Source: a virus (lineage: Duplodnaviria > Heunggongvirae > Uroviricota > Caudoviricetes). From it: a stretch of 7,586 nt of DNA. The notes under the pieces were generated by a model that did no database searches, was not told where the DNA came from, and was given only the letters and a program-made list of their open reading frames with translations. Both the position numbers and the translations under genes were made by a program. The stretch is from the IMG/VR virus record IMGVR_UViG_2778261594_000011, positions 1-7,586 of that record; one strand, 5' to 3'. Within the stretch, counting starts at the first letter, position 1; each line of letters begins with the position of its first letter. Below are positions 3,319-7,586 of this stretch, piece after piece.

Positions 3319-3608
3319 CAGAACTTATCACCCTGGAAGAAGTGAAACTCCATTGCCGCATCGATGGCGACGAGGAAGACCAGCTAATCAGCGGATACAT
3401 TGCCGCATCGCTTGAGGCGTGTCAGATACACATAGGCAGGCGCTTTGATGACGGGCTGGAGTTCACGCCAGCCATAAAGATTGGCTGCATGATGTTTATT
3501 GCTCACCTGTACGAGAATCGCCAGCTGGTCGCGGATAACACCAGAACACGCGTACCCCTGACGATAGGCGCACTCTGGACGGCTTACCGTGATGTGGGGG
3601 TGTACTGA
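3315..3608 (+). CDS. gp6-like head-tail connector protein
   Basis: 97-aa ORF with the N-terminal pattern LITLEEVKLHCRIDGDEEDQLISGYIAASLEACQ..GRRF typical of HK97 gp6-like connectors. ATGA overlap with the upstream gene. Confidence 0.75.
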   Translation: MTELITLEEVKLHCRIDGDEEDQLISGYIAASLEACQIHIGRRFDDGLEFTPAIKIGCMMFIAHLYENRQLVADNTRTRVPLTIGALWTAYRDVGVY

Positions 3609-4048: not shown

Positions 4049-4214
4049 GCGGGAACAAAACCGTCTTATCCGTGGACTTATAAGGCAGCGTGACGCATGG
4101 AAGACACAGGAAACAGGGCATAAAAGCACAAAGGAAGCGCGAACAGGGCGCACCACAGCAACGCGATTAACTGACCGTGACCGCGAGGTGATGGAATGTT
4201 TCCGCAATCGCTGA

Positions 4215-4290
4215 TGATGCTGCCGGACGGGTGGGGGGGAGTTTTCAGGACAAACCCGCCCCCGTCCAGAACCGACCGCCTCCTCAAATT
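4215..4290. other. Candidate cos / terminase recognition region (GC-rich inverted repeat followed by an AT-rich tract)
   Basis: Inverted repeat GGACGGG (4226-4232) / CCCGTCC (4261-4267) flanking a G7 run and a C-rich run, followed by AT-rich sequence up to the terS start. It lies in the 289-bp HNH-terS intergenic gap, the position of cos in HK97-like genomes. Positional inference only. Confidence 0.25.
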
Positions 4291-4337
4291 TTTATGCACG
4301 GGAATTTTTTGAAAAATAATCTGGCGAAAAAATAAGC

Positions 4338-4694
4338 ATGGCAAGACCACCGAAAGCCCCCGCCTACCTGGATGATATCGCCGTGAAGCAGTGGCGGGAA
4401 AAATCGCGGCAGCTTGCGGAACGGGGAGACCTGACCCCCGCCGACTGGAGCAATCTGGAACTGTATTGTGTCAACTACTCCATTTACCGGAAAGCCGTTG
4501 CAGACCTTGCGGCGCGCGGGTTCAGCATTGTTAACAGTCAGGGCGGCGAGAGCAGAAACCCCGCATTAAGCGCAAAATCCGACGCTGAAAGAGTGATGAT
4601 AAAAATGGCCTCCTTGCTCGGTTTTGACCCGATAAGCCGCCGTAAAAATCCACCGGAAACAGAAGAAGAGGACGAGCTTGACCGCCTGGAATAA
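4338..4694 (+). CDS. terS: Terminase small subunit, P27 family
   Basis: 118-aa ORF with sequence character typical of P27-family TerS (KQWREKSRQLAERGDLTPADWSNLELYCVNYSIYRKA; acidic C-terminal tail EEEDELDRLE). It sits immediately upstream of, and overlaps, the large terminase gene. Confidence 0.8.
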   Translation: MARPPKAPAYLDDIAVKQWREKSRQLAERGDLTPADWSNLELYCVNYSIYRKAVADLAARGFSIVNSQGGESRNPALSAKSDAERVMIKMASLLGFDPISRRKNPPETEEEDELDRLE

Positions 4695-6339
4695 GTACGC
4701 AGAAGACGTAAAAACGGGCAAAATTCCGGCCTGTAAACGGCTGAAACAGGCCGTTAAACGGTACTTTTCGGACCTTGAAAGCCCCCTTTACACGTTCGAT
4801 CGTGAGGTTGTGGAGCGGTTTATTGCCTTTTCCAGGGTGTGCCCGCACGTAAAAGGGCCGATGCGTGGCAGACCCATTGAGCTGGAGCCGTGGCAGCAGT
4901 TCGCCTTTGCGTGCATCCTCGGCTTTAAGGTTAAGGCCACCGGACGGCGCAAATACACGAGCGCCTTTATCGAAGTGCCGCGCAAAAATGCGAAATCCAC
5001 GACCGCCGCGATTCTGGCTAACTGGTTTCTGATTATGGAGAACGGGCAGCAGGATATTTACACCGCAGCGGTGAGCCGTGACCAGGCGCGGATCGTTTTT
5101 GATGATGCGCGTCAGATGTGCCTTTTATCCCGACCGTTACGCAGGCGGGTGAATATTCAGGCCCACAAGGTGATGCACCCGAAAAGCAACAGCCTGTTAA
5201 AGCCGCTGGCAGCAAAAGCGGCAACCATCGAGGGAACAAACCCCAGCCTTTCCATCGTGGACGAATACCACCTACACCCCGATAACGGCGTTTATTCCGC
5301 GCTTGAGCTGGGGATGGGCGCACGTCCCGAAGGGCTGTTATTTGCCATTACCACATCGGGCAGTAACGTCGTTTCAACCTGTAAACAGCACTATGATTAT
5401 TGCTGCCAGATCCTGGACGGCGAAGAGGTCAACGATTCAATTTTTGTGCTGATTTACGAGCTGGACGACGAAAACGAGGTTGATGATCCGGCGATGTGGA
5501 TAAAGGCTAACCCTAACATCGATGTTTCCGTGGATCGTGAAAAACTGGCCTCAACCATCCAGAAAGCGCGGGGTATTCCGTCGCAATGGGTGGAGATGAT
5601 GACAAAGCGATTTAATATCTGGTGCCAGGGGGCTACCCCGTGGATGGGTAACGGCGCATGGGCTGAGTGTGCCGGAACGTTCACGGAGGAAGATTTACAC
5701 GGGCAGGAGTGTTACGCGGGGCTGGACTTATCATCAACCAGCGATATTTCCAGCGTGTGCTATGCCTTTCCGGTCGGTAAAAATATCATGCTGGTTTCCC
5801 GTCATTATCTGCCGGAGTTCCAGCTACAGAACCCCGCCAATAAAAACCGCGCTGTCTATCGCCAGTGGGCTAAAGCGGGCTGGATACGCACAACGCCAGG
5901 TGACTGCATTGATTACGACCGGATCAGAGATGACATCATGCAGGATGCGGAGAAATTTAATATCAGGCTGGTGGGCTTTGATACGTGGAACGCCACGCAT
6001 CTCAGGACGCAATTACAGGGGGCTGGTTTTGAGGTGGAGCCGTTCCCGCAAACCTACCTCAGATTCAGTCCGGCGGCGAAATCGTTCGAAGTTTTTGTTA
6101 ACCGCAGGGTGATTGTGCATCGTGGCGATCCGGTGTTGTCCTGGTCGATGAGTAACGTCGTGATGCAGAGTGACGCGAACGCCAATATCAAGCCGAACAA
6201 GAAAAAATCACCGAACAAGATAGACCCGAGCGTAGCGGCGCTGATGGCGTTTGGTACATTCCAGGCAGAGCATGAGGATTTTGCTTTTGATATAAGCGAC
6301 AGCCACCGCCAGAAACTGGAAGAATTTAGCGGGGTGTAA
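4678..6339 (+). CDS. terL: Terminase large subunit (ATPase + nuclease), Terminase_1 / HK97 gp2-like
   Basis: 553-aa ORF. Walker A-like IEVPRKNAKSTTAA and Walker B-like LSIVDEYH in the N-terminal ATPase domain, with an acidic-residue-rich C-terminal nuclease region. The ORF as drawn starts at a TTG (4678-4680), 17 nt inside the terS 3' end; the first in-frame ATG is ~61 codons downstream, after the conserved N-terminal W..Y..DV..GKI..C motif, so the non-ATG start is plausible but unproven. Confidence 0.88.
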   Translation: MTAWNKYAEDVKTGKIPACKRLKQAVKRYFSDLESPLYTFDREVVERFIAFSRVCPHVKGPMRGRPIELEPWQQFAFACILGFKVKATGRRKYTSAFIEVPRKNAKSTTAAILANWFLIMENGQQDIYTAAVSRDQARIVFDDARQMCLLSRPLRRRVNIQAHKVMHPKSNSLLKPLAAKAATIEGTNPSLSIVDEYHLHPDNGVYSALELGMGARPEGLLFAITTSGSNVVSTCKQHYDYCCQILDGEEVNDSIFVLIYELDDENEVDDPAMWIKANPNIDVSVDREKLASTIQKARGIPSQWVEMMTKRFNIWCQGATPWMGNGAWAECAGTFTEEDLHGQECYAGLDLSSTSDISSVCYAFPVGKNIMLVSRHYLPEFQLQNPANKNRAVYRQWAKAGWIRTTPGDCIDYDRIRDDIMQDAEKFNIRLVGFDTWNATHLRTQLQGAGFEVEPFPQTYLRFSPAAKSFEVFVNRRVIVHRGDPVLSWSMSNVVMQSDANANIKPNKKKSPNKIDPSVAALMAFGTFQAEHEDFAFDISDSHRQKLEEFSGV

Positions 6340-6352
6340 TGAGGTCAGCAGC

Positions 6353-6634
6353 ATGACAGAAGCCGAAATACTGCGATTAATCCGCCGCGTCTCTGGAATC
6401 AGCCAGCAGGCTGACGAACAGACCACGCAGCCGGACAGCGTGACAGCCGAAAATTATGCGCGTGTTGTTGCTGAGGTGATGCGCCGTGATGGTATCCAGC
6501 TTAATGATGCGGATATGCGCGACATACGGATCCGCGTTCTGGAAATGCTGGCCTACAATCGCCGCGTTGAACTGTATCGGGAGAAGGAGAAAATCACGTA
6601 TCACTGGAAGAAGCCGGAGCGGTTACGGCGGTAA
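6353..6634 (+). CDS. Hypothetical small protein (93 aa), last gene of the packaging operon
   Basis: ATG with a GAGGT RBS ~8 nt upstream, 13 nt after the terL stop. The protein is charged and Arg-rich with no motif I recognise. Coding status rests on ORF length, the RBS and operon context only. Confidence 0.5.
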   Translation: MTEAEILRLIRRVSGISQQADEQTTQPDSVTAENYARVVAEVMRRDGIQLNDADMRDIRIRVLEMLAYNRRVELYREKEKITYHWKKPERLRR

Positions 6635-6678
6635 CTTGTTGATTAAAAGGCGGCTCAATTCTGAGCTGGGTAGCTGAC

Positions 6679-6719
6679 GGCGGTAACTGTTTGATATTCC
6701 CGATAACGCAAAATTGCGC
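6679..6719. repeat. ~41-bp direct repeat, copy 1 (GGCGGTAACTGTTTGATATTCCCGATAACGCAAAATTGCGC)
   Basis: Direct sequence comparison with copy 2 at 6861-6904, which differs at a few positions. It contains the 17-bp motif gGTAACTnnTTGATATT and a short terminal palindrome (CGCAA-AA-TTGCG). Confidence 0.8.
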
Positions 6720-6774
6720 TGGCTACATCCCTCACATCTGAGGACTGTTAACCAGCAGGCCGGAATATATTCAC

Positions 6775-6797
6775 AAACTACGAAATTTTCGTAGTTT
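6775..6797. repeat. 23-bp near-perfect palindrome AAACTACGAAA-t-TTTCGTAGTTT (operator-like)
   Basis: 11-bp arms that are exact reverse complements around a single central base; located between the two ~41-bp direct repeats. Confidence 0.85.
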
Positions 6798-6860
6798 AAT
6801 TACTCGCCAGTTTATCGTTAACTAGTTGATATTTTCGGAAACCTCAATTTGAGGAAGTCG

Positions 6861-6904
6861 GCGCGGTAACTGTTTTATATTCCCGATAGCGCAAAAATGC
6901 GCGG
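6861..6904. repeat. ~41-bp direct repeat, copy 2 (GCGCGGTAACTGTTTTATATTCCCGATAGCGCAAAAATGCGCGG)
   Basis: Imperfect direct copy of 6679-6719. It is preceded by the palindrome CCTCAA-t-TTGAGG (6842-6854), which mirrors GCTCA-attc-TGAGC (6650-6663) ahead of copy 1. Related partial motifs occur at 6629-6645 (GGTAACTTGTTGATTAA) and 6820-6836 (GTTAACTAGTTGATATT). Confidence 0.8.
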
Positions 6905-6930
6905 TCGGGCAGAATGAGCACCACCTCAAT

Positions 6931-6966
6931 CGTGACGGAGAGTGACAACCAGTGACACACCGTGAC
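6931..6966. repeat. Four (C/A)GTGAC motifs at exact 10-bp spacing (helically phased iteron-like array)
   Basis: GTGAC at 6932, 6942, 6952 and 6962, followed by the palindrome ACGGTT-t-AACCGT (6973-6985). The reverse-complement motif GTCACT recurs at 7064-7069 and 7361-7366. Confidence 0.8.
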
Positions 6967-7019
6967 AAAAAGACGGTTTAACCGTTCATTAAAAATCGAC
7001 GTGATTTTGTGCTTTCCGG

Positions 7020-7038
7020 ATGACGTGGCCAACGTCAT
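7020..7038. repeat. Palindrome ATGACGT-ggcca-ACGTCAT
   Basis: 7-bp perfect inverted arms with a 5-bp spacer, followed by a T6 run; a related GACGTGAT lies at 7001-7010. Confidence 0.75.
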
Positions 7039-7354
7039 TTTTTAGCGAAAAATTCTGATTAAGGTCACTGGCTGAATGGTCATAATTACCACGCAGACCA
7101 TCGAGGCAACCATAGCGATCATCGTTACGGTTGGAGCTTTTCCGCCATTGGTGGAAAAGGTGCACATCTGGATCATCATTACGGTGATCAAGGGTATGTA
7201 AAACCCACCTGGCTGATTAAAGGTTAACCGGAAAAAAAATCCGGTAGCCCCGTTATGGGGATCCCCATATCGACAGCAACGCCTCCTTAAAATTACCCGC
7301 CTTTATATTTCTTGTGCCTATTTGTTCCACGTTGTTTCATACAGTGCACCGAAC

Positions 7355-7378
7355 GGTGTAGTCACTGGTGTAGTCATT
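7355..7378. repeat. Tandem 12-bp direct repeat GGTGTAGTCACT / GGTGTAGTCATT
   Basis: Two adjacent 12-mers differing at one base, ~75 bp from the putative element/host junction. Confidence 0.8.
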
Positions 7379-7421
7379 TTGCGAATTTTGGCACTTTCTC
7401 AGTGAAAATTGCTTAATTAAA

Positions 7422-7586
7422 TCAATGCACTATGCGGGATAAGTTATATATAACAGCAATAAATAATGCGAGAATAAACGGCACGATGATCTCGGCGGCA
7501 AAACGGATACCGCAGAGAATAATGACCAGCATTCCCAACATAATGACGATTTTTAGGCCATTGAGCGTGATGATCGGCTTTGCCAT
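7422..7586 (-). pseudogene. tqsA: 5' fragment of a tqsA (ydgG)-like AI-2 exporter gene, truncated after ~45 native codons
   Basis: The minus-strand ATG at 7584-7586 opens an ORF translating [45 protein letters not shown], which matches the TqsA N-terminus as I recall it, then continues IYNLSRIVH and stops at 7422-7424 (54 codons against ~344 aa for intact TqsA). The gene start is at the window edge, so the promoter and upstream region are not visible. Confidence 0.55.

Follow-up and report, generated by a model that had tools for sequence, protein, structure and literature searches.

The repeats (iterons) of the phage lambda ori sit inside gene O. In-gene iterons of this lambdoid kind (lambda O; the YdaU/DnaT-type replisome organizer of Rac-like prophages) come in four to six helically phased copies. 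Extra iteron clusters outside plasmid origins (P1 incA, F incC, and RK2-type copy control) titrate the initiator, and the origins of PICIs and SaPIs have iterons flanking an A/T-rich region next to pri-rep genes. At their right end, PICIs have an accessory region that is reported to carry protein-based anti-phage systems. Phased origin repeats are textbook matter; one standing orphaned in a satellite's accessory arm, with no initiator in cis, is to our knowledge apparently undescribed, and our literature search returned no description of orphan origin repeats in the accessory arm of a phage satellite. We describe a phased GTGAC array in the non-coding right arm of an Escherichia coli capsid-forming PICI (cf-PICI) and compare it with these systems.

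The window (the whole stretch of DNA analysed, 7,586 nucleotides) is 99.9% identical to E. coli chromosomes at its right end and makes up the right half of an island of about 15.5 kb in tqsA, an identical copy of which is present in NZ_CP028122. The island opens with genes for an integrase and a small HTH regulator, Icd-like and small genes, and DUF4222; next come a RepA-family helicase, SSB, and a PerC-family regulator. These are followed by head genes (capsid, protease, portal, head closure protein, and head-tail connector protein) and a packaging end (HNH, a 60-aa ORF, terS of the P27 family, terL, and a 93-aa gene), after which about 800 bp of non-coding DNA run to the other tqsA fragment. 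The annotation of NZ_CP028122 holds no tail genes in the island. Cf-PICIs are defined (bioRxiv 10.1101/2022.09.08.507074, 10.1101/2025.02.11.637232) by an integrase and AlpA-like regulator, their own replication module, capsid-protease-portal-connector genes, HNH-terS-terL, no tail genes, and a length of 10-18 kb. The gene order in NZ_CP028122 and the lack of tail genes match this definition, and on the annotation of that island and two relatives the element is a cf-PICI. The DUF4222 gene always lies directly upstream of the replication gene (L001, 7947-8246; L480, 6423-6722; L481, 6549-6863), which is of three types (RepA helicase, primase family, or DUF927). A further array with a 10-bp period, ACAACGTGAA ACAATGTGCA ACAACGTGAC ACAATCACGA, is found between the integrase and small HTH regulator genes (L001, 4781-4820). 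The 93-aa protein matched only two loci in a search of species-representative genomes.

The GTGAC array lies in the non-coding right arm after the packaging operon, 297 bp past the 93-aa gene and about 480 bp from the attR core. The features of this arm are as follows.

6353-6634, plus strand: last gene of the packaging operon, encoding the 93-aa protein (phrog_1561)
6931-6966, plus strand: GTGAC array, four (C/A)GTGAC units at exact 10-bp phasing
6967-6977, plus strand: conserved 3' flank AAAAAGACGGT, which accompanies the array in every island type
6967-7018, no strand: A/T-rich stretch directly 3' of the array (63.5% A+T versus 47% for the window)
6973-6985, no strand: palindrome ACGGTTtAACCGT, broken or absent in relatives
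7020-7043, plus strand: hairpin ATGACGT-GGCCA-ACGTCAT with TTTTT after it, also formed in the minimum-free-energy fold
7312-7338, plus strand: TTGTGCC / TTGTTCC / TTGTTTC at 10-bp phasing, adjoining the probable arm-type sites
7355-7378, plus strand: tandem GGTGTAGTCAyT, two copies (GGTGTAGTCA pairs), recurring by the integrase gene at the opposite end of the island (L001, 3456-3479)
About 7446-7454: att core, 9-bp repeat ATAACAGCA

The (C/A)GTGAC units start at 6931, 6941, 6951, and 6961, and GTGAC hence starts at 6932, 6942, 6952, and 6962. Read from 6931, the units are CGTGACGGAG AGTGACAACC AGTGACACAC CGTGACAAAA, then AAGACGGTTTAACCGT, with GGAGA, AACCA, and ACACC as spacers; Tandem Repeats Finder gave a period of 10. 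The null model comprised 2,000 dinucleotide-preserving shuffles of the whole window, scored for any 5-mer at a fixed spacing of 9-12 bp, and the longest run in a shuffle was two copies in 1,914, three in 86, and four in none. The array is real and non-random, and an earlier note on this DNA, which had described four GTGAC motifs at exact 10-bp phasing, had placed them correctly. Only two short minus-strand ORFs (48 and 64 aa) overlap the array, and neither resembles an initiator.

The motif is widespread. In IMG/VR, an exact search for four copies of GTGAC-N5 matched at least 120 contigs, spread over many sequence families that are not related to each other, and complete IMG/VR scans with two control 5-mers found 36 contigs (CAGTG) and 45 contigs (GAGTC), nearly all of them with plain tandem repeats. 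Arrays with divergent spacers (an average of at least two mismatches) accounted for 79 of 120 among the GTGAC matches listed, versus 2 of 36 for CAGTG and 5 of 45 for GAGTC. At about two-thirds of the 120 GTGAC loci listed, the array lies within an ORF of 230-400 aa on the opposite strand. Among the matches listed, 81 embedding ORFs were at least 190 aa long; at least 49 of these match PHROG "replication initiation protein" families, and 30 have a C-terminal DnaT domain. An HMM of the shared initiator N-domain matched 68 of the 120 array loci listed, and of ten embedding ORFs that it missed, eight encode an initiator, a primosomal protein, or a helicase loader. In E. coli phages such as Evi and Tritos, the most frequent family carries the annotation "DNA replication protein O" or "replisome organiser". 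The N-domain gives weak, sub-threshold winged-helix matches, with one member passing Pfam Phage_rep_org_N, and a PDB profile search with it returned nothing significant. Initiator genes with GTGAC repeats are present in 2,186 of 5,426 complete E. coli genomes (40%). Since a 10-bp period cannot stem from codon constraint, the in-gene repeats are DNA-level sites; by analogy with the lambda ori in gene O, we take them to be the iterons of these initiators.

Within these genes (IMG/VR loci L005-L124), the arrays are often preceded by a pyrimidine-rich repeat of 5-6 bp (TTCTCT, ATCTTT) and followed by inverted GTCACG copies. They mark the region coding for the linker, and sometimes the N-domain, in temperate phages ranging from AT-rich to GC-rich, and the E. 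coli initiator family has two arrays per gene (L005, 3045-3100 and 3330-3370). A literature search returned no report linking GTGAC with phage iterons, and published accounts of Rac oriJ give no sequence.

The window array shares with this class the GTGAC core, the exact 10-bp period, and spacers that are free to vary; it is non-coding, not antisense inside an initiator ORF. It resembles lambdoid in-gene iterons in having a similar number of helically phased copies and an A/T-rich stretch alongside, and many phage initiator genes, those of E. coli prophages included, hold arrays with the same core and period. Unlike lambdoid iterons, it stands away from any initiator gene in an island that encodes no such initiator, is not accompanied by pyrimidine-tract repeats, and is dispensable among close relatives. 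Like the clusters of P1 incA, F incC, and RK2, it consists of repeats of the initiator-binding type unattached to an initiator gene; on those plasmids the cluster and the initiator share a replicon, whereas the presumed initiator for the island would be on a phage, and titration here is a proposal. With PICI and SaPI origins it has the element type and short repeats in common, and it differs from them in its independence of replication gene type and in its place at the opposite end of the island from a separate AAAAGTGGGG repeat set. With lambda-like att arm and excisionase arrays it shares phased direct repeats near an island end; unlike those, it is far from the core, is independent of att site and integrase, and is matched by better candidates on both arms.

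A sensitive BLAST search of the 5,426 complete E. coli genomes matched 6860-7060 in 266 genomes, with many alignments starting exactly at 6931 and stopping at 7057-7060 and some spanning 6931-6977 only. The array was found with three replication genes and at three integration sites; strain ZH063 carries it in an island beside bioD with a primase-family replication gene, and strain 2014EL-1345-2 carries a five-copy version in a yifB island with a DUF927 replication gene. Among 54 IMG/VR loci with a relative of the 93-aa gene and enough downstream sequence, 19 have the array and 35 do not, and because it is missing from so many close relatives, it is dispensable. Its offset from the stop codon of the 93-aa gene ranges from 7 to 307 bp across islands. 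Judged from these sequence comparisons, the array is a mobile, dispensable module. Queried with the module, blastn against sequenced phages gave weak matches to the terminator part only.

The immediate surroundings divide into conserved and variable parts. The flank AAAAAGACGGT is the only one common to window-type and L003-type modules. The earlier note had joined the array to the palindrome that follows it; ACGGTT-t-AACCGT is indeed present at 6973-6985, but its second arm reads AACCAT in L002 and it is missing from the L003, L196, and L042 types, so on comparison of relatives it probably lies outside the functional unit. Nor could the array be tied to the GTCACT at 7064, where relatives read GTCAT. 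Should the array serve as an origin, the A/T-rich stretch at 6967-7018 might be where the DNA unwinds. Within about 100 bp of the array there is neither a DnaA box (up to one mismatch) nor an IHF consensus, the sole IHF match in 6800-7200 being at 6831 on the minus strand. The hairpin at 7020-7043, which makes up the 3' half of a conserved module running from 6931 to about 7057, is likely the intrinsic terminator of the packaging operon and is kept in relatives, including array-less ones (L165, L177). A consensus scan for promoters and terminators missed this hairpin; its only hits, both on the minus strand, were a weak hairpin at the palindrome and a single promoter-like site. As a separate candidate, matS (GTGACRNYGTCAC) was searched for, and 6800-7200 holds no full site.

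Upstream, 6612-6905 (and the sequence after locus position 2782 in L127-L206) contains a repeated box, GGTAAC-N4-TGATATTyyCG, followed by a hairpin. The stems differ between units and islands yet are palindromic (GCGCAAAATTGCGC, CCTCAATTTGAGG, CAGCCAACGGCTG, TTCGCCAGCGGCGAA, TCCCCCATTGGGGGA, and CTACGAAATTTTCGTAG), with one to more than six units per island, and from this pattern the units look like covarying stem-loops. They are presumably what had been noticed before as a 17-bp motif cluster.

Toward the att core, the GGTGTAGTCAyT pairs have the same orientation at both island ends, the attR pair lying about 70-90 bp from the core, and their counterpart in L002, at another att site, reads GGTGTAGTTAAT. 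This arrangement makes them probable arm-type integrase sites, unrelated to the GTGAC array. The GTCACT within them, once linked to the array, belongs to a separate element whose L002 counterpart lacks GTCAC. Beside them on both arms (L001, about 3417-3450; L002, 9580-9610) are three to four copies of TTGTnnC, with TTGTTCG / TGTTCG x3 as the counterpart in relatives; these repeats are a candidate cooperative binding array for excisionase/AlpA or integrase.

Direct repeats of a short motif in helical phase, as in iteron origins, are present in the window as four exact GTGAC copies; a cognate initiator in cis is not, the neighbour being the 93-aa protein. Across 82 cf-PICI loci, no homologue of the initiator N-domain was detectable (best E = 0.56). 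When 6600-7450 was compared with initiators by blastx, only translated repeats aligned, so the non-coding arm holds no initiator gene remnant.

Our tentative reading, which we place slightly below an even chance, is that the array is a cluster of orphan iterons to which the initiator of a lambdoid phage, co-resident or infecting, binds in trans. It would belong to a small mobile non-coding module (the array and AAAAAGACGGT, usually then an A/T-rich stretch and a terminator) seated in the mosaic accessory right arm of the cf-PICI. The four sites, on one face of the helix, would be bound cooperatively by the winged-helix N-terminal domain of a phage initiator, which a co-resident or superinfecting lambdoid (Rac-like) phage would supply. 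Phage initiator and helicase loader could then fire the island from the array as an auxiliary origin and unwind the A/T-rich stretch beside it; alternatively, the array of an amplified island could soak up the phage initiator. Because the island has no matching initiator, a phage protein in trans would be the probable binder, and the presence of GTGAC-repeat initiators in 2,186 E. coli genomes means that a partner is commonly available.

HK106 and HK446, the experimentally known helpers of the prototype cf-PICI, have no chain of three or more GTGAC/GTCAC, so any partner would be a different lambdoid phage. The O-like gene of HK106 (L366, 32294-33184) contains TTGTCCAACGG in two groups of three with an 11-bp period, and that of HK446 (L365, 29115-29936) contains CATTAGCyAA / AAGTCrGCTAA repeats; these in-gene repeats have the same design as the GTGAC class, with other motifs. 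Several findings count against binding in trans. Pyrimidine-tract repeats, which many in-gene arrays have ahead of them, are absent from its flanks; the array is dispensable; DnaA boxes are lacking nearby, and the sole IHF match in 6800-7200 stands about 100 bp upstream; some non-coding GTGAC arrays (L017 family, L008, L099) adjoin terminase genes; and the array shows a loose association, kinship ignored, with the RepA-type helicase. The motif may have a second, non-replicative use. The wider proposition, that satellites have as non-coding cargo orphan repeats taken from the origins of other temperate phages, so that initiator binding in trans leads either to replication of the island or to starvation of the phage origin, we regard as somewhat unlikely.

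The best-surviving alternative, improbable in our view, is that the array is a relic, a fragment of a phage origin recombined into the mosaic right arm and now drifting without function. The arm is indeed a patchwork (box-hairpin units, the array module, the terminator module, and further hairpin units) of short modules that come and go, 65% of close relatives lack the array, and no partner gene in cis was found. Against drift stands the pattern of substitution. An anchored pattern search (GTGACAAAA..GACGGT) returned mostly chance matches and 12 usable distinct array variants, anchored on the last copy and flank only; in these, the non-anchored in-register copies are exact GTGAC throughout, with six substitutions in spacers versus one in an outermost fifth copy. 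Copy number shifts by whole 10-bp units, relatives having four or five copies. The module has also spread to islands with differing replication genes, att sites, and upstream junctions, at its variable offset from the 93-aa gene, and no protein-coding initiator remnant flanks the array. Conservation of motif and phase, together with the spread of the module, argues for some selection. The conservation among homologous elements that the earlier note had proposed to check holds for motif and phase where the array is present, but not for the array itself, which 35 of the 54 relatives lack.

Three further explanations each have, in our estimate, a slim chance of being right. In the first, the array is the island's own second origin or a copy-control site for an island protein. 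Its phased direct repeats adjoin an A/T-rich stretch, and the array is enriched with the RepA-type helicase, the best association in a test of 45 islands covering 10 kb upstream of the array (14 of 19 array-bearing versus 6 of 26 array-less islands; p = 0.001, kinship ignored). That test found no gene strictly co-occurring with the array, and there are exceptions both ways, with five array-bearing islands lacking RepA and six RepA islands lacking the array. Farther out, in the left 4-5 kb, three annotated array-bearing islands contain only genes common to all such islands. The array occurs with a RepA helicase, a primase-family protein, or a DUF927 protein, and no island ORF resembles the initiator domain associated with GTGAC. 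Moreover, the RepA-family helicase gene is directly followed by AAAAGTGGGG/AAAAGTGGGT repeats, which face both ways about an A/T-rich stretch (L001, 9640-9860), and from this layout the AAAAGTGGGG set is itself a candidate for the island's own origin. The lack of such an initiator, the separate AAAAGTGGGG set, the three replication genes, and the absence from 35 of 54 relatives together indicate that the array is not the origin of its island. Of the suggestion of an iteron-type origin made in the earlier note, what endures is that GTGAC every 10 bp is a signature found inside phage initiator genes.

In the second, equally improbable, explanation, the array is a packaging signal made up of binding sites for the small terminase (P27 family) or forming part of cos. 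The array directly follows the terS-terL-93-aa operon, and other non-coding GTGAC arrays are known from a terL/portal gap in the L017 family and from sequence upstream of terL, in L099, or of HNH-terS-terL, in L008. A terminase site should be present wherever its cognate small terminase is, and here five array-less islands have a TerS 100% identical to that of the window, with array-less islands also having TerL at 98-99% and the 93-aa protein at 100% identity. The array is also missing from a virion-derived cf-PICI record, vB_KppS-Ant (LR881103), whose first base is 22 bp ahead of terS. As for the other arrays, that of the L017 family is inverted relative to terL, in an element with tail and lysis genes, and those of L008 and L099 are near-perfect tandem repeats, not motif-only arrays.

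HK97-type systems have their cos between the HNH gene and terS. The start of vB_KppS-Ant fits this arrangement, and by analogy the gap between the 60-aa ORF (after HNH) and terS, 4214-4338, is the likely cos of the island; neither description of cf-PICIs (bioRxiv 10.1101/2022.09.08.507074, 10.1101/2025.02.11.637232) maps cos. The L017 family (L006, L017, L038, L040, L074, L096, L100, L118, and L121) comprises GC-rich elements of 10-16 kb with the order HNH-like, terL, four to six GTCAC, portal, protease-capsid fusion, neck, tape measure, and holin. The array fills the short terL-portal gap, and no initiator homologue was detected in the available sequence of this family.

The third of these explanations, to which we give no better prospects, is that the array serves as a transcription-factor operator or, at the RNA level, as an element of the untranslated 3' end of the packaging operon. 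It is placed downstream of the last gene and upstream of the terminator hairpin, and the islands encode small HTH, PerC-family, or ProQ/FinO-family proteins. Against this explanation, 6300-7586 has no Rfam match, the fold of 6925-7048 is unremarkable (z = -1.55), no plus-strand promoter-like site adjoins the array, and no gene strictly co-occurs with it. The 10-bp helical phasing and the identity with origin repeats point to recognition of double-stranded DNA instead.

Arm-type integrase or excisionase sites, raised in the earlier note because phased short direct repeats are typical of them and favoured by the position on the attR side, are very unlikely, since the array stands some 480 bp away from the att core (460-650 bp in relatives) and not within the 150-200 bp or so of arm sites, does not co-vary with the integrase (three insertion sites and integrases), is present or absent on the same right-end sequence (the window versus L152 and L159), and is outdone on both arms by the two GGTGTAGTCAyT copies and the TTGTnnC repeats at 10-bp phasing.

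For many unrelated temperate phages, GTGAC every 10 bp offers a practical aid in annotating origins. If the array in this island is inert, it cleanly illustrates the mosaic make-up of the non-coding arms that such islands have. If it is bound in trans by a phage initiator, the right-end accessory region would also house a DNA-only means of exploiting or interfering with phages, and satellite-phage conflict would gain a new layer, at replication initiation, acting through 45 bp of non-coding DNA and not through a protein.
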